The translations under genes and the position numbers were made by a program. This document shows positions 55,829 to 64,000 of a stretch of DNA of 64,000 bases, piece after piece. Within the stretch, counting starts at the first letter, position 1; each line of letters starts with the position of its first letter. Source of the stretch: Archaeoglobus sp. UBA230 (GTDB taxonomy: Archaea > Halobacteriota > Archaeoglobi > Archaeoglobales > Archaeoglobaceae); the NCBI RefSeq assembly GCF_002507545.1, contig NZ_DAVR01000018.1:2367-66366 (forward strand), given 5' to 3'. The notes under the pieces were generated by a model, which made no database searches, had not been told where the DNA came from, and saw only the letters and a list, made by a program, of their open reading frames with translations.

Positions 55829-56746
55829 ATGGACAGGAAATTCAGAAACTGCATTCTCGGAGTTGCAGTTGGTGACGCCCTTGGAATGCCAGCCGAAGGA
55901 CTTTCGAGGGAAGACATAAAGCAAATCTATGGTGAAATCAGGGATTTTTATCCCTCTCCTTATGGAGACCTTAAGCCGGGAGAATGGACGGATGACACAG
56001 AACAGATGCTTTTACTTGCAGAATCCCTGATTGAAACCGTTTATTTCAGTCCTGAGAACTTCTCCGAGAAACTGAAGAATTGGTTTTTGAGTACCAAAAG
56101 CCGTAGAATAGGTCCCAGCTCAACGAGGGCGATATCCAATCTTTTGAGTGGTATCCCTTGGAACAGGGCAGGAGTTCATAGCGACACGTGTGGGGCAGCT
56201 ATGAGAGTAGCTCCGATCGGGTTGGTTTACCACTTCAGCTTAAATCTGGTGGAAAGGTATGCAGAACTCTCGGCGAGGGTTACGCATACAGGAAGTGGAG
56301 CGATATCTGGTGCTGTAGCTGTGGCAGTTGCAATTGCATGCAACGTTCTTGATTTCAGCGATGAAGAAATGCTTGCAGAGGTGCTGAGAAGAGTTGAAGC
56401 TATAGACTCTCTAATGGCGGACAAAATTAAGTATGCCTACGAAATTTCAGACAGAGATTCTGATTTCGCAGTTGAAAAAATTGGAAACACCATTTCAGCA
56501 CTTGATGTTGTTCCAATGGCCTTTTACTGCTACTTTGCAGCAGAGGATTTTGAAGAGTCACTGGTGAGGGCTGCAAATACTGGAGGAGATGCAGATTCGA
56601 TTTCAGCGATATGCGGTGCTCTGAAGGGGTCGGCAAGTCATGAAATTCCTGAAAGGTGGTTGAGAGGCCTCAAAGACAAAGACCTTTTAATTGAAATTGC
56701 TGATAAGCTCTATGATTTACACGTGAAAATCGTCAAGATTGCATAA
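55829..56746 (+). CDS. ADP-ribosylglycohydrolase (DraG/ARH family)
   Basis: GVAVGDALG.P.E, WTDDTEQ, CGAAMRVAPIG, THT, GGDADSISAICGAL.G. Confidence 0.93.
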   Translation: MDRKFRNCILGVAVGDALGMPAEGLSREDIKQIYGEIRDFYPSPYGDLKPGEWTDDTEQMLLLAESLIETVYFSPENFSEKLKNWFLSTKSRRIGPSSTRAISNLLSGIPWNRAGVHSDTCGAAMRVAPIGLVYHFSLNLVERYAELSARVTHTGSGAISGAVAVAVAIACNVLDFSDEEMLAEVLRRVEAIDSLMADKIKYAYEISDRDSDFAVEKIGNTISALDVVPMAFYCYFAAEDFEESLVRAANTGGDADSISAICGALKGSASHEIPERWLRGLKDKDLLIEIADKLYDLHVKIVKIA

Positions 56747-57686
56747 TCTTGCATTCCTCAGGGCTTTTATCATCCCTTAATCTGAGAAAAACAGGCGATC
56801 TGAGCTTTTGGTCTTCTGTCAACTCGAGAAATTCAACCTCACAAACGTAAACGGGTTTCACCCAGTGCACGCCCTTCTTCTCCATCTCAAAATGTGGCTT
56901 GCCTATCTCAATCTCATGCAATTTTTTTGAGAACCAGTCCATGAACTCTCTGTCAAATCCTGTTCCAACCTGTCCAACATGTTTAAATTTTCCGTCAGAA
57001 TAAACTGCAAGAATTAGGGAGCCAAAACTTTCTTCTCTCTCCCCTTCTCCCTCCAACCATCCCACAATAACGCAATCAGCAGTATTTCTCTTCTTTATCT
57101 TCCTCCAGAACTTGCTTCTTTTTCCTATCTGGTATCTGCTATCCTTCTTTTTAGCAACTACTCCTTCAAGACCAATTTCAATCACTTTTCGGTACAGCTC
57201 CTCCCCTTTTTTGTTAATGAAGTCTGTTTTCATGATCCTTTCCGAATTTTCCATCACCTCATCAAGCACTTTTTTTCTTTCAATCAGCTCAAGGTCGGTG
57301 ATCCATCCATCCTTTTGAGTGTATAGAACGTCGAAGGCGATGTATACCGCAGGGATTGTTTTGCTAAGAATCTCAATTTTGAATTTGCTGTCAACATGCT
57401 CTCTTTTTTGCAGAAGCGGAAAGGATGGTTTCCCATCCTTTGTAACCACGATCTCTCCATCAAGAATCGCATTCTGTTCAACTACCTTGAAGAAGTCAAG
57501 TTCAGGATAGCGGTGGGTTATATCTAAAAGTCTTCGGTTCTGCAATCTCAACCTGCGGTTTTCTACATCTACAAAGGCTATACAGCGAGTGCCATCCCAC
57601 TTTATCTCGTAAATGAACCCATCGTCACTGAAAGGTGCACTTCTTACAGCAAGCATTGGTCTGATTTCTCTCTCAAACCAGCTCAT
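56733..57686 (-). CDS. ATP-dependent DNA ligase, stand-alone LigD-type ligase domain
   Basis: EIKWDGTR (KxDG), LDGEIV, AFDVL, EGVVAK..DS.Y..G.RS..W.KIK, GQVGTGF, EVEF, LRSPVF..LR.DK. Confidence 0.93.
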   Translation of the reverse strand: MSWFEREIRPMLAVRSAPFSDDGFIYEIKWDGTRCIAFVDVENRRLRLQNRRLLDITHRYPELDFFKVVEQNAILDGEIVVTKDGKPSFPLLQKREHVDSKFKIEILSKTIPAVYIAFDVLYTQKDGWITDLELIERKKVLDEVMENSERIMKTDFINKKGEELYRKVIEIGLEGVVAKKKDSRYQIGKRSKFWRKIKKRNTADCVIVGWLEGEGEREESFGSLILAVYSDGKFKHVGQVGTGFDREFMDWFSKKLHEIEIGKPHFEMEKKGVHWVKPVYVCEVEFLELTEDQKLRSPVFLRLRDDKSPEECKIMQS

Positions 57687-58450
57687 GCCTCTTTTACAGC
57701 CTCCAGACTTGCTTTAAGAGCATCCATCAGGGACTTCACTTCTTCAACACCCTCAGTCACGGTTACCTCTCTCCCGGCAAGTTTGGCCTCGATCAGTTCC
57801 ATCAAAGCCTCTTTGTATTCGTCTCTGTATTCTTCGAGCTTCAACGGCTTCTTCATCGCTATTACAAGCTTCTTGGCAAGCTCAAGCTCCTCCTCGCTAA
57901 CTTCAATCTCAATACCCCAACCCGGTACCTCTGCCGGACTTCTGATCTCGTCTATGTAGTGAAGCTGGGTGAGGAGGAGACCGCCATCAAAGGCCTTAAG
58001 AGCGATGAGGTGCTCCTTACCTCTCATACCCATCTTGCCGATTGCCATACTTCCTGTCTCACTCATTGCCCTCTTGAGGAGATAATACGCCTTCTCTCCA
58101 CCCTTGTCGGGTGAGACGTAGTAGAAGTTACTGTAATAGATTACTCCCAGCTCGCTGGGATCGAAGAACTGCTTGATCTCGATGCTCTTTACAGTTTTGA
58201 GAGGAACTTTTTCGAAATCTTCGTCAGTTAGGATAACATACTCATTTTTTGAAATTTCGTATCCCCTCACAATTTCATCATTTGAAACTTCTTTGCCGCA
58301 TTTTTCACAAACCTTTTTGTATCTAATTCTACCGCCATCAGCAGAGTGCAGGAGGCTGAATTTCAGTTCCTTGGGTAAAATGGCGGTATATACCTTGACC
58401 GGGATCGTAACCAGACCAAAGGTGATGCTGCCTTTCCAGCTTGCTCTCAT
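57683..58450 (-). CDS. ku: Prokaryotic Ku protein (NHEJ)
   Basis: MRASWKGSITFGLVTIPVKVY, RIRY..VC, IVRGYE, I.I.QF, YYVSPD, Y.LL..AM, Y.DE.R, Y.DEY, V..LMDALKASL. ATGA overlap with the ligase gene. Confidence 0.95.
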   Translation of the reverse strand: MRASWKGSITFGLVTIPVKVYTAILPKELKFSLLHSADGGRIRYKKVCEKCGKEVSNDEIVRGYEISKNEYVILTDEDFEKVPLKTVKSIEIKQFFDPSELGVIYYSNFYYVSPDKGGEKAYYLLKRAMSETGSMAIGKMGMRGKEHLIALKAFDGGLLLTQLHYIDEIRSPAEVPGWGIEIEVSEEELELAKKLVIAMKKPLKLEEYRDEYKEALMELIEAKLAGREVTVTEGVEEVKSLMDALKASLEAVKEA

Positions 58451-58605
58451 AGTGTATAATTTACCGCAGATGAAATAAAATTTCCGATGCAATCAAAAAC
58501 GATAAATTGAGTTATTTTTAAATCGTGCTAAAATATAATACAAATATTCAATTTAGATACGTATTTAGTAAGAAGATTTAAATAACTAAAACAAACATAA
58601 TACGT

Positions 58606-59940: not shown

Positions 59941-60017
59941 TTGCGGAGCAGATAGCTTTTACATTCCTGATACTGGCAAGTGGTACTGGCAACTTCAGAA
60001 GTGAAAAAGGTAGATAG

Positions 60018-61310
60018 TCAGGGAACAAGCCTGTGCCTGTCTCTTGGAAACAGCACTGCCTCTCTCACATTCTTCAATCCGAGCATTGACATCAGCAACC
60101 TCTCCGCCCCGAGTCCCCAACCAGCGTGGGGCGGCATGCCATAACGGAAGGCTTCGAGGTAGAATCCAAAGCTCTCAGGCTCCATGCCTTTTGCCCTTAT
60201 ACTCTCAACCAGCATGTCGTAGAGGTGAATTCTCTGCGCTCCACTCGCCAGCTCAAGCCATTCATGCATGAGATCAAAGCTCTTGCTGATCTCCGGCTTA
60301 TCCTCGTAAGGCATCGCGTAGAAGGGCTTTGATTCAGTCGGCCAGTCTGTTATGAAGTAAAGCCCACCGATTTCGTCTCCAACGTGCTTTAGTGCAGTAG
60401 TGTTCAGGTCTTCTCCCCACGGAATTTCTTCACCCTTTTTTGCTGCAATCTCCATCGCCTCGTCATACGTTATTCTCTCGAAGGGAAGTTCGGGCACCTC
60501 CAAAGACAGCTCGAGCCATTGGAGATATCTCTCGCACTTCTCAGCCACATCCTCGTAAACCCTATACACGAGCCTCTCAAGAACTTCCATAACACCATTG
60601 TGATCGGTGAAGCTCATCTCGATATCTATGGAAATCGCCTCATTCAGGTGCCTCGTCGTATTGTGCTCCTCAGCTCTGAATATCGGCCCTATCTCAAACA
60701 CCTTCTCAAATCCCGCACCCATCAAAACCTGTTTGTAGAGCTGCGGGCTCTGATTGAGAAAAGCCTCCTTTTCGAAATAGCTGATGGGAAACAGCTCTGT
60801 GCCACCTTCAGTTGCTGTCGAAACAATTTTTGGTGTGTGAACTTCGATGAACCCCTCCTCACATAAAAATTCTCTGACAGTTTGCATCATCTGATGCCTT
60901 ATCCTGAAAATTGCCTGCACCCTCGGTCTTCTTAAGTCCATGAAGCGGTGGTCGAGGCGCGTGTCAAGCTCTGCTGGTACTTTTTCGGTAACCTCAAGCG
61001 GTAAGGGAGCATCAGATTCGTTCAAAACCTCAATGGTTTCAGGAATAATCTCAAACCCACCCGGAGCCTTCTCCTCAACCTTGACCTCGCCAACAACCCT
61101 AATCACACTCTCCCTTCTAATCTTTTTGGCGAGCTTGAAGATTTCCTTGCTGACGAACTTCTTCGGCAGGGTTATCTGAGCGATTCCCTCTCTGTCTCTG
61201 AGCAGCAGAAAGACCAATCCGCCAAGATCGCGAACCTCGTGCACCCACCCGTAGAGTGTGACCTTCTGCCCCTCCATCTCTGGTGTGATGTCGGCAGTGT
61301 GAACTCGCAT
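60018..61310 (-). CDS. aspS: Aspartyl-tRNA synthetase (archaeal type)
   Basis: [66 protein letters not shown]. Confidence 0.97.
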
Positions 61311-61340
61311 GCCTTTAAGATGGCACGACAGTTTTTAATT

Positions 61341-62576
61341 TTAACTGATCTCGTAAATCTTTTCCAGATTCCTCAGTTTTACAACATTTTCCACGTCTCC
61401 TCTTCTTATCACTCTGAAAGCATGCTTGATCACACTTTTGTAAAACTCGCAGAAAGGACTTCTCTCCATAAGAGATCCTCTTTCCGCGTACACCTCCGCT
61501 GGACAGGGGCTTCCACAGACATTTCTGTAAAGACACTCTTTGCAATCCTCAATAAGCTCCACTTTTCTGCTTCTGACATCTCTGAAGGCATTTTCGAGAT
61601 TGTTCAGGTTCTCAAATCCCACTCTGAACTTCTCAAGCCCGATGAACTCACTGCACGGGAATAACCCATCGGGAGTTACCGCAAAGAACCTCCTTCCAGC
61701 TCCGCAGGGAGAGATGTCGCATTGTAGAACTCTCGAGTATGGTGCGATAATTCCAAGCATAATGTTTGCAAAATCACCAACAACTATCCTTCTGCCATTT
61801 TTCGTGTGCTCTATCGCCCTATCAACAGCCTTTATGAAGCTCTCAGCCGCTCGCTCTGGGTTAGGGCGAAGTTCTCTGCCACCCTTACTCGTGCCCCTGA
61901 CGGGGTTCATGAGCGTAACCTCAACCTTTCCAGCCAGAAAGTCAATCATCTCTGGAAGATGGTCGAAATTGTACCTGTTTATCGTCGTTATGACGTTAAA
62001 TCTTCCATACCCTTCAAACCAGTCCAGAATCTCCTGTATCTTCCTGTAGTGTCCCTTTCCCCTGAGAAAATTCTCAATTTCTTCCCTTGGAGAATCGAAA
62101 GATACTCCCACGTTAATTTCCTTTTCCCTCAGAAACTCCGCATCCTCCTCTGTCATGAGAAAACCGTTCGTCTGAAGTCCAAAGTAAAATTTAAAATCCT
62201 CTATCGCCCTGAAAATTAAATCCTTGCATATCAGAGGTTCTGCACCGTGAAAGATTACATTTCTGACTCCCATCTCCTCAAATTTAGTCAGCAACTCTTC
62301 AAGAGTCATATGGTCCATCATCCTGCCTCTCCTCCTTACCTCTACCGGGATGTAGCAGTATGGACAGTTTGCGTTGCAACTTTCGGTTACGTTGAGGTAA
62401 ACAGTTCTAAAATCGACTTCAAACCGGTACTTTTCCATTCTGTTTCTCAGACTATCCTTGTTCTCAAGATAAAGTTTCTTCACTCTCCCTGGCAGTTTTC
62501 CATCGTGAATTGCCCAGAAGTTCGTTTCTGGATCAATGGTAACGTTAAAGTCGTCAATCTTGGCAGTTTCGAACAT
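61341..62576 (-). CDS. Radical SAM/SPASM-domain enzyme, probable peptide maturase (CbpB-like)
   Basis: CNANCPYC (CxxxCxxC), FHGAEP, C-terminal CDISPCGAG...PCSEF...CKECLYRNVCGSPCPAE...FC, N-terminal IDPETNFWA extension, GAGGTGG SD, small peptide ORF immediately upstream. Confidence 0.88.
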   Translation of the reverse strand: MFETAKIDDFNVTIDPETNFWAIHDGKLPGRVKKLYLENKDSLRNRMEKYRFEVDFRTVYLNVTESCNANCPYCYIPVEVRRRGRMMDHMTLEELLTKFEEMGVRNVIFHGAEPLICKDLIFRAIEDFKFYFGLQTNGFLMTEEDAEFLREKEINVGVSFDSPREEIENFLRGKGHYRKIQEILDWFEGYGRFNVITTINRYNFDHLPEMIDFLAGKVEVTLMNPVRGTSKGGRELRPNPERAAESFIKAVDRAIEHTKNGRRIVVGDFANIMLGIIAPYSRVLQCDISPCGAGRRFFAVTPDGLFPCSEFIGLEKFRVGFENLNNLENAFRDVRSRKVELIEDCKECLYRNVCGSPCPAEVYAERGSLMERSPFCEFYKSVIKHAFRVIRRGDVENVVKLRNLEKIYEIS

Positions 62577-62596
62577 TTCTCCACCTCATAAAAATT

Positions 62597-62680
62597 TTAA
62601 AAGGGAGAGTCCTCCCCAGTCCTGACGTAATGCGTTAATCCACCATCGGGCTGACACTCGTACATGAAGCTGTAGATCAT
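62597..62680 (-). CDS. Unannotated 27-aa putative RiPP precursor peptide (CbpA-like)
   Basis: Hand translation MIYSFMYECQPDGGLTHYVRTGEDSPF*. The stop lies 20 nt before the rSAM ATG on the same strand. Core CxxDGGLTHYV resembles the recalled CbpA motif C..DGxGLSHYI. Confidence 0.75.
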   Translation of the reverse strand: MIYSFMYECQPDGGLTHYVRTGEDSPF

Positions 62681-62727
62681 GCTTTTCAGTTTCTGGGAAT
62701 GAATAAATTCTTTGTTTTTGTTATACG

Positions 62728-62754
62728 ATTGTATTACAAAACTCTGAATACAAT
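62728..62754. promoter_or_regulatory. Perfect inverted repeat ATTGTATT-N11-AATACAAT, candidate operator between divergent promoters
   Basis: Seen directly. It abuts a TATA-like TTATAT (62754-62759) about 25 nt before the regulator ATG. A minus-strand TTTATT (62707-62702) lies about 25 nt before the peptide ATG. Confidence 0.6.
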
Positions 62755-62781
62755 TATATTTCAAGACTATGATAGACTATT

Positions 62782-63171
62782 ATGGAAATTAAGTTCAGAA
62801 TGTGGATCGAAAAGAATGGTGAACATGTCATAGGAAAAGGTGGAGCACGGATTTTGAGAGCGATAGAGAAAGGAGGTTCGATATCGGCTGCAAGCAAGAG
62901 CCTCGGAATGTCGTATCGCTATGTGTGGGGCTACATAAAGAGAATGGAAAAGATCGTTGGAAAGGTTGTGAGCAGCTCAAAAGGAGGTAGCAAGGGTGGT
63001 AAAAGTGCGCTAACTGATAATGGAAAGGAGATTGTTGAATTTTACGAGTTTTATGAAAATTTAATGACAAAGTTGACATCTGGAGATTTCGTAAGGGGTA
63101 AAGTTGAAAAGGGCAAAGTTTTTCCTGAGAAAGAGTTGGAAGATGGAGAGGTAATCATATTAAAAGTTTAA
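62782..63171 (+). CDS. ModE-type winged-helix transcriptional regulator
   Basis: MWIE..GEHVIGKG.ARILRAI..GGSISAASKSLGMSYRYVW.YI..ME...G..V.S.KGG..GG.S.LT is the ModE N-terminal HTH pattern. Short C-terminal tail with no full TOBE pair. Confidence 0.88.
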   Translation: MEIKFRMWIEKNGEHVIGKGGARILRAIEKGGSISAASKSLGMSYRYVWGYIKRMEKIVGKVVSSSKGGSKGGKSALTDNGKEIVEFYEFYENLMTKLTSGDFVRGKVEKGKVFPEKELEDGEVIILKV

Positions 63172-64000
63172 GGACTGTGAAGGCGAGGGCTGGATCTCTG
63201 ATAAGTCTGAGAACTATTTTGAAGACTGAGTTTGGTAATTGCAGGGTTGAGGGTTTGTCCATGTGCACTCCCGGAAAGTCAAAACCTTTCATGATCTCGA
63301 AGAGTTTCTCCATTTTTTGATCATCCATTGTGTAGAGTTTTCGTATTTTGTACCCAAACTTGTATTCTCTTCCAAGTTCCTTGATATACTTCTTCTGGTA
63401 ACTATTGAAGTCTGGAAAGCTATCAGCAAGCTTTTCCGCTGCAACGAGCAGGTAGTATAGTCCTCCACCTGTGTAGGGCTTTACCATTCCCGCAGCATCA
63501 CCTATGAGTGCCACGTTGCCCTTGGAGAAATCAATTAGCCTGTCAGGTATGGCTCCAGCATTAAGCTCGATTACACCCCCCCTCACCCTTTTTGACACTG
63601 AAGGGTGATCGTAAATCAGCTTATTGAACCTTTCCAGCGCTCCTTCTCTGCTTATCACACCAACTTTTGCAGTGTCACCAATAGGAATGGCGTATGCAAA
63701 GAAATCGCTCCACTTGTTTCCAAAGTAAAGTTCCACGTAGTTCTCATCTAAAGCCTCAAATCTCATCTCAGCCTGAAGTGCTGTAAAAACCCCTGGCCTC
63801 TCAAATCCAAAATGTCTTGCGACAGTTGAATTTATACCGTCTGCTCCGATTATCTTATCAGCTTTGATCTCTTTGCCGTTTAATATCGCTTTACTACCTC
63901 TGAATTTGGTTTTGGATTTGACAAAAACATCTGCGACATCTGACGCTCTCTCGAAGAGAAGTGTGTCGAGAATTTTTCTCTCGATAACATACGCATCTCC
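63155..64000 (-). CDS. Geranylgeranyl-reductase-family FAD-dependent oxidoreductase, 5'-truncated by the window edge
   Basis: The frame stays open upstream of 63766 (IIGADGINSTVARHFG); FFAYAIP, LIGDAAGMVKPYTGGGL. Confidence 0.88.
   Translation of the reverse strand, partial: GDAYVIERKILDTLLFERASDVADVFVKSKTKFRGSKAILNGKEIKADKIIGADGINSTVARHFGFERPGVFTALQAEMRFEALDENYVELYFGNKWSDFFAYAIPIGDTAKVGVISREGALERFNKLIYDHPSVSKRVRGGVIELNAGAIPDRLIDFSKGNVALIGDAAGMVKPYTGGGLYYLLVAAEKLADSFPDFNSYQKKYIKELGREYKFGYKIRKLYTMDDQKMEKLFEIMKGFDFPGVHMDKPSTLQLPNSVFKIVLRLIRDPALAFTVLKLLI

Follow-up and report, generated by a model that had tools for sequence, protein, structure and literature searches.

A CbpA/CbpB peptide and radical SAM enzyme pair in Archaeoglobus sp. 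UBA230 with a probable link to cobamide metabolism

The 64,000-nucleotide stretch of Archaeoglobus sp. UBA230 contig NZ_DAVR01000018.1 analyzed here (positions 2,367 to 66,366, hereafter the window) carries a two-gene cassette, cbpA-cbpB, which encodes a 27 aa precursor peptide and a radical SAM/SPASM enzyme. The pair almost certainly belongs to the CbpA/CbpB family, and its connection with cobamide metabolism is probable. We lean towards a reading in which CbpB cyclizes CbpA and the cyclized peptide would act late in cobamide assembly or in corrinoid handling; we infer both the chemistry and the role. A thioether is put forward tentatively as the cross-link, on the indirect grounds that the nearest relatives of CbpB are thioether maturases and that CbpA has a single invariant Cys. 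The anaerobic biosynthesis of cobamides is held to be largely mapped, yet a pair with no known product spans many archaeal and bacterial phyla and is found in B12 operons. The archaeal case contributes separate evidence of its own and a candidate regulator of archaeal cobamide genes. The new elements are a putative archaeal operator common to cbpA and cobT and a candidate regulator combining a ribbon-helix-helix (RHH) domain with a PurM-type fold.

The two genes are co-directional, with cbpA located 5′ of cbpB and a gap of exactly 20 nt between them:

62597–62680, minus strand: cbpA, the 27 aa precursor peptide MIYSFMYECQPDGGLTHYVRTGEDSPF, recognized from the list of open reading frames (ORFs), a TIGR04164 match and conservation
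61341–62576, minus strand: cbpB, the 411 aa radical SAM/SPASM enzyme, recognized with TIGR04163 and PF04055

The original prediction, made from the letters of the window, had placed a 27 aa ORF 20 nt from a radical SAM gene, and both ORFs were found as described. It had also named the CbpA and CbpB families as those that the pair resembles. For the enzyme, this proved right: CbpB scores 483.5 bits against TIGR04163 ("peptide-modifying radical SAM enzyme CbpB", curated cut-off 375), with residues 9–398 aligned to model positions 10–427 of 428, and the whole-genome search agrees. The radical SAM core, PF04055, is matched with 86 bits. The next-best NCBIfam matches, PapB, TIGR04083 and SCIFF (thioether maturases), all fall far under their cut-offs. 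For the peptide, the name stood by position and motif and did not stand by score. TIGR04164 ("modified peptide precursor CbpA") is its sole match, at 29.2 bits (E = 4.8e-7) against a cut-off of 35, a shortfall due to FMYEC in place of YRxEC and to a divergent tail. TIGR04164 is a narrow model; the A. fulgidus-type peptide reaches 59.8 bits and that of Ferroglobus 53.6 bits (the archaeal type ending in PF), and most peptides beside clear CbpB genes score 20–30 bits or nothing at all. CbpB is a member of TIGR04163 by the curated test, and CbpA is a member of its family by position and motif, not by score. The family is already present in NCBIfam/TIGRFAMs, and its members are named by PGAP in relatives; it is uncharacterized. 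A search of a paper library found no study of CbpA/CbpB, TIGR04163/TIGR04164 or B12-linked RiPPs (peptides made on the ribosome and modified after translation).

A short ORF alone is uninformative here, as 89 ORFs of at least 20 aa overlap the same 6 kb, and the 27 aa ORF is accepted as a gene because of its conservation. The cbpA frame is open back to a TTG at 62764, a start that would give 55 aa. Homologues of CbpB number 1958 proteins at E up to 1e-30, and the enzyme was found in 14 of 41 related genomes. Eighty loci were fetched from Archaeoglobi, Bathyarchaeia, Methanoliparia, ANME-1, Hydrothermarchaeota, Methanonatronarchaeia, Nitrospirota, Omnitrophota, Planctomycetota, Thermodesulfobacteriota, Elusimicrobia and others. 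Of the 81 archaeal and bacterial loci examined, 77 show a CbpA-like ORF just upstream of CbpB, and one of the remaining four has too little flanking sequence to be judged; no such ORF is present at the loci of other radical SAM paralogues. The absence of the peptide beside orthologous enzymes, which the original prediction had named as evidence against itself, was therefore not observed. The UBA230 genome contains only one CbpA-like ORF. The codons of the invariant residues C, G, L and H include every synonymous codon, with all six used for Leu. The proportion of synonymous differences, pS, is 0.86 (saturated), and that of non-synonymous differences, pN, is 0.22 (0.09 against the nearest relatives), with pN/pS of about 0.26. 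Hence, cbpA is a real gene, and it is under strong purifying selection.

The alignment of 82 distinct CbpA cores gave the motif aromatic-x3-C-x3..7-G-L-(T/S)-H-(Y/F), where C, G, L and H are invariant and T/S and Y/F are nearly so. The single Cys, Asp, His and Tyr had been proposed as cross-link sites. The Cys and His, and the nearly invariant Tyr/Phe position, survive this comparison; the Asp is not conserved, its position varying between DGG, GGG, EGG and ANG, and it is thus not the cross-link site of the family. Archaeal peptides start 4–7 residues ahead of the Cys and end in (S/T/A)PF, and in bacterial ones the N-terminus is extended by a Lys-rich stretch and the tail is different. The peptide of the window has no leader region. 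In Candidatus Methanohalarchaeum thermophilum, CbpA (L056:5751–5846) stops right after GGLTHFV and has no acidic (S/T/A)PF tail; this tail may be dispensable.

CbpB is a radical SAM/SPASM enzyme of the three-cluster type. Across 78 aligned sequences, the CX3CX2C motif (C67/C71/C74) is invariant, as are C286, C291, C308, C345, C354, C358 and C376 of the eight C-terminal Cys residues; the eighth, C348, is nearly invariant. Together, they complete the seven-Cys SPASM motif (C291-x12-G-x3-C308, C345-x2-C348-x5-C354-x3-C358 and C376), with C286 in addition. The Cys-rich, SPASM-like C-terminus noted earlier is thus a complete motif, although Pfam PF13186 (SPASM) gave no score on CbpB. As all eight Cys of the region are present, their count implies that no cluster site would be left open for a substrate Cys. 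The AlphaFold (AF2) model of CbpB is confident (pLDDT 94.6). Modeled residues 3–52 form three short strands and one long helix (beta3-alpha1) and bear the IDPETNFW motif, in which F20 is invariant and W21 is conserved in at least 90% of sequences. The N-terminal extension reported earlier is therefore conserved; a full RiPP recognition element (RRE) is not borne out, since this part of the model amounts to roughly half a canonical RRE and CbpB gave no hit to a PqqD-type domain (E up to 1). A small peptide-docking sheet at the N-terminus is plausible from the model.

Comparison with solved structures and known systems places CbpB closest to the thioether-forming maturase CteB (5WHY/5WGG; E = 3e-20; profile 133.8 bits), in line with the earlier assignment of the pair as a precursor peptide and its maturase; anSME, ChlB, TigE, SkfB and SuiB follow in this order. 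Both CteB and CbpB possess a radical SAM core and a full SPASM domain, and both have a Cys-containing substrate. However, the identity is about 20%, the profile match leaves CteB residues 1–92 uncovered, which hold its RRE, and CteA-type substrates contain six Cys in contrast to one in CbpA. The Asp/Glu acceptor used by PapB is not conserved in CbpA. The second-best fold match, anSME (PDB 4K36–4K39), also has eight cluster-ligating Cys in its SPASM region. This enzyme acts on a large protein, in which it oxidizes a Cys or Ser; CbpB reaches only 78 bits against the 349-bit anSME cut-off and has no sulfatase context. PqqA/PqqE and MftA/MftC resemble the pair in that a very short, highly conserved peptide adjoins a SPASM enzyme and is tied to metabolism rather than to microbial warfare. 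Unlike PqqE and MftC, to which its similarity is weak (69 and 63 bits), CbpB has no PqqD-type partner or domain, and no further processing genes are conserved beside cbpAB. Two general RiPP hallmarks, a leader on the precursor and a PqqD-like RRE on the maturase, are absent from this pair.

The evidence for a link to cobamides within the UBA230 genome comes from the cbpA promoter, where two elements were recognized:

62717–62740: operator-like palindrome TTTGTAATAC-AATC-GTATAACAAA, found in an inverted-repeat search and by its conservation in relatives
62702–62707, minus strand: TATA-like box TTTATT, 21 nt ahead of the cbpA ATG, centred at about 25 nt

The palindrome stands 9 nt upstream of the TATA-like box. 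The nearest relatives keep it, as do many cbpA promoters of Archaeoglobaceae whose neighbouring genes are unrelated, and its consensus is TTTGTAWTAC-N4-GTAWTACAAA, which ends about 35 nt ahead of the archaeal cbpA start. A position weight matrix (PWM) of the palindrome was derived from 12 archaeal cbpA sites and used to scan the whole UBA230 genome. Only three strong sites were obtained (26–31 bits, against a shuffled maximum of about 19), and these lie ahead of cbpA, of cobT and of a candidate RHH regulator gene. The cobT site is located at C42:43458–43481, the identity of CobT being given by TIGR00303 (428 bits), and the cobT promoter is laid out as at cbpA: palindrome, 7 nt, TTTATTT, 22 nt and ATG. 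Weaker PWM sites at C3:40933 (inside an ORF), C27:10301 (3′ of a gene) and C49:14989 were dropped, being within the range of shuffled sequences. Among the 41 related genomes, the palindrome pattern occurs in 16, with 1–3 sites per genome, and the reversed control gave 0–1. Twenty of the sites in relatives are not at a known cbpA; 12 of these lie about 40 nt ahead of cobT, 4 lie 2–4 nt ahead of the RHH gene, 1 stands before a fragment of cbpB at the end of a contig, and the others look like chance. This distribution suggests a small regulon that would comprise cobT, cbpAB and the gene of the candidate regulator.

The RHH gene of UBA230 lies outside the window (C32:18186–19046, minus strand, 286 aa) and is followed by a precorrin-2 dehydrogenase-like gene; its palindrome (C32:19049–19072) is 2 nt ahead of the ATG. 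Over its full length, the protein is homologous (E = 8e-20) to the one encoded divergently from cbpA in Methanoliparum. In ANME-1, Methanoliparia and Methanolliviera, an RHH gene is divergent from a cbpA-cbpB-cobT array. The C-terminal domain is predicted (pLDDT 88.7) to adopt the PurM-superfamily fold common to SelD, ThiL, HypE and PurL; the label "PurM-like" is unsupported by Pfam and NCBIfam, and the family has no functional name in any source checked. These features suggest that the RHH protein would be a transcription factor that controls its own gene and has a sensor domain for a nucleotide or other ligand. No description of an RHH/PurM-fold candidate regulator of archaeal cobamide genes was found.

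In bacteria, the association with cobamide genes is direct, the pair being part of operons for the synthesis, salvage and transport of cobalamin. Neighbouring genes were clustered across loci, and representatives were checked against NCBIfam. Bacterial cbpAB genes are co-directional with and situated among cbiMQO, cbiX/C, cbiD, cbiA, cbiP, cbiB, cobD, cobU, cobT, cobS, cobC, btuF, btuC and TonB-dependent receptor genes; of these neighbours, CbiO, CobT, CbiX/C, CobS, CbiD, CbiA and CbiM were confirmed with NCBIfam. A cobalamin/AdoCbl riboswitch was detected directly upstream of cbpA in three loci (123.7 bits in one of them, L066) and at the operon head in two others. Judged from this context, "cobo" in the model name is read as "cobalamin operon". 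The bacterial enzymes are orthologous to CbpB of the window (40–46% identity), and their peptides share the core C-x-GL(T/S)H(Y/F). They differ in being under RNA control, whereas a protein-type operator is proposed for the window, where an Rfam scan of positions 60000–64000 found no riboswitch or other RNA family. Against the catalogued CbpA/CbpB systems, the window pair agrees in an enzyme well above the cut-off and in the position, length and core motif of the peptide, and departs in having no adjacent cobalamin gene, its B12 link being the operator common with cobT. The UBA230 genome encodes cobamide synthesis elsewhere, namely CbiA, CbiB, CbiC, CbiD, CbiE, CbiF/H/L, CbiM, CbiO and CbiP. 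Since the putative operator is common to cbpA and cobT, the gene for lower-base activation, and no riboswitch or B12 neighbour is present, the role of the pair would be narrowed to late cobamide assembly.

The spacer between the two genes contributes the following elements:

62577–62596, minus strand: cbpA-cbpB spacer AATTTTTATGAGGTGGAGAA, 20 nt, a T-tract followed by GAGGTG
62590–62594, minus strand: T-tract directly after the cbpA stop codon, conserved
62579–62587, minus strand: Shine-Dalgarno-like GAGGTGGAG of cbpB, 3–11 nt ahead of the cbpB ATG

The TTTTTT-GAGGTG arrangement follows the cbpA stop codon in most Archaeoglobaceae loci. A run of 5–7 T straight after this codon is also kept in about 25 archaeal loci. 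T runs can end transcription in archaea, and termination at this one would yield more mRNA for the peptide than for the enzyme. The spacer may thus combine a partial terminator with a ribosome-binding site. The TATA-like element announced about 25 nt upstream of the peptide was confirmed, and it recurs at −27/−28 of the peptide start in about 17 related loci, which is consistent with a leaderless or near-leaderless cbpA transcript.

The following scheme can be proposed for the cassette. The RHH protein would regulate cbpA, standing in for the bacterial riboswitch, and a leaderless transcript would start from the TATA-like box. Part of the transcription would end at the T-tract after cbpA; on the remaining transcripts, cbpB would be translated from GAGGTG. 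CbpA would dock on the small N-terminal beta-sheet of CbpB, which would cleave S-adenosylmethionine and take a hydrogen within the G-L-T/S-H-Y/F segment of the peptide. The activated residue might then couple to the sole Cys of CbpA to form a thioether ring, a C–C link through His or Tyr being equally permitted by the eight-Cys SPASM region. The cyclized CbpA would finally serve either corrinoid handling or the late stage of cobamide assembly, at the lower ligand or the nucleotide loop. In a more specific joint reading, which we regard as rather doubtful, the modified CbpA, through its T/S-H-Y/F triad, would supply, carry or present the base activated by CobT, or would itself be a His-type ligand for incomplete corrinoids; the Archaeoglobi regulon of cobT, cbpAB and the regulator gene, run by an RHH/PurM-fold factor, would then be the archaeal protein counterpart of the B12 riboswitch.

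Several observations weigh against a cyclized peptide with a cobamide role. No B12 gene is adjacent to the cassette here (none within about 15 kb) or at the other Archaeoglobaceae loci, and the match of the peptide to TIGR04164 is below the cut-off. The cobT operator site also occurs in four genomes without cbpB, so the regulon would include cbpAB only in some genomes. That the RHH protein binds the palindrome is proposed from their co-occurrence only. Between the Cys and GL(T/S)H of CbpA, the spacing differs by as many as four residues, an unusual feature for a fixed ring, and the apparent lack of an open cluster site in CbpB would fit a thioether and a C–C link equally well.

Among other explanations, an origin of a small cofactor or base from CbpA, in the manner of PqqA/PqqE or MftA/MftC, is unlikely: CbpB would introduce the first cross-link, and a small molecule derived from the T/S-H-Y/F triad, such as an imidazole-type base for activation by CobT, would then be cut out by further enzymes. 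PqqA and MftA are short, extremely conserved peptides with no leader, and CbpA shares these properties (it is likewise leaderless); cbpAB adjoins cobT, the gene of the base-activating enzyme, or appears to share its regulation, and several bacterial loci have a gene for a Dph6-like ATP pyrophosphatase after cbpB. Archaeoglobi also seem to have no BzaF-type 5-hydroxybenzimidazole synthase, since exactly one ThiC-like gene is present in each of their genomes, which leaves no BzaF paralogue, in contrast to 2–4 in the methanogens among the 41 relatives. However, the ThiC-like copy number is uncorrelated with cbpB; every Archaeoglobi genome has a single copy with or without cbpB, so the check for replacement of BzaF by cbpAB is uninformative either way. 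Furthermore, no protease or additional tailoring enzyme is conserved beside the archaeal pair, and the genomes with the cobT operator and no cbpB speak against such a role. The metallophore suggested by the original prediction received no specific support, as the context is that of cobamide metabolism (cobT and nucleotide-loop genes), not of free-metal chelation. A cobalt chelator or chaperone of this kind, in which cyclized CbpA would bind Co(II) through Cys, His and Tyr and hand it to the chelatase or aid its import, is improbable. The invariant Cys and His of CbpA would suit this function, and the Nitrospirota pairs are placed between cbiMQO and cbiD/cbiX. On the other hand, many bacterial loci are of the salvage type (BtuF, BtuC, TonB-dependent receptor and CobU/T/S/C), and the 13 kb examined contain no chelatase gene, which means that free cobalt is not needed there. 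In UBA230, only the promoters of cobT and of the RHH gene share the strong operator of cbpA; the site at the cbiM/cbiX cluster of C27 is at noise level (12.2 bits) and 3′ of a gene, and the archaeal cassettes have no conserved exporter or receptor next to them. The salvage-type operons and the cobT-specific regulon together argue against a chelator of free cobalt.

Two further explanations lead away from cobamides. The nearest characterized relatives of CbpB make thioether peptides, so one could imagine CbpA as an antimicrobial RiPP for secretion, a bacteriocin of the sacti- or ranthipeptide kind with no relation to B12. This is hardly credible: the surroundings contain no conserved gene for a transporter, a protease or immunity, archaeal CbpA is without a signal or leader region, its core hardly changes between the archaeal and bacterial phyla, in contrast to the fast-evolving bacteriocins, and the context consists of B12 operons, riboswitches and the cobT regulon. 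It is also very improbable that the peptide is linked to molybdenum or tungsten and under the control of the divergent ModE-like protein. A gene for a ModE N-terminal-type helix-turn-helix (HTH) protein does stand divergent from the cassette across 101 bp, in an arrangement kept in three close relatives:

62782–63171, plus strand: ModE N-terminal-type HTH protein, 129 aa, without Mop domains (TIGR00637, 100.7 bits, cut-off 98.5)

Besides the missing Mop domain, no Mo or W gene recurs near cbpAB. The palindrome is also found at cbpA promoters with no ModE-like neighbour, as well as before cobT and the RHH gene. The ModE-like gene accompanies cbpAB only in the closest relatives; the other cbpAB loci do not have it, and many of them carry the palindrome of the 62717–62740 type. 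This gene is probably neither the controller of the cassette nor part of the system, and regulation by the RHH protein together with cobT is preferred.

In the window, the cassette is flanked by aspS on one side and the ModE-type HTH gene on the other, with a geranylgeranyl reductase gene nearby. The ModE-like gene of the closest clade is the only conserved neighbour found for the Archaeoglobaceae cbpAB genes. A second inverted repeat, ATTGTATT-N11-AATACAAT (62728–62754), overlaps the distal half of the palindrome at 62717–62740 and, unlike the latter, is not conserved in the nearest relatives. The Dph6-like ATP pyrophosphatase (PF01902, under all NCBIfam cut-offs) was seen after cbpB in loci of Planctomycetota, Elusimicrobia and Omnitrophota, and its gene is just after or near cbpB in seven loci. 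A Dph6-like paralogue in the UBA230 genome (C27:10447–11070) adjoins cbiE/cbiD. The Dph6-like protein could be an unrecognized amidating or adenylating enzyme of B12 operons. Two overlapping ORFs, 57683–58492 (269 aa) and 56733–57686 (317 aa), lie 3 kb from the cassette. A reverse gyrase gene (TIGR01054, 1323 bits; L025:3644–6859) is located just past the end of the window, and its presence is consistent with a hyperthermophile.

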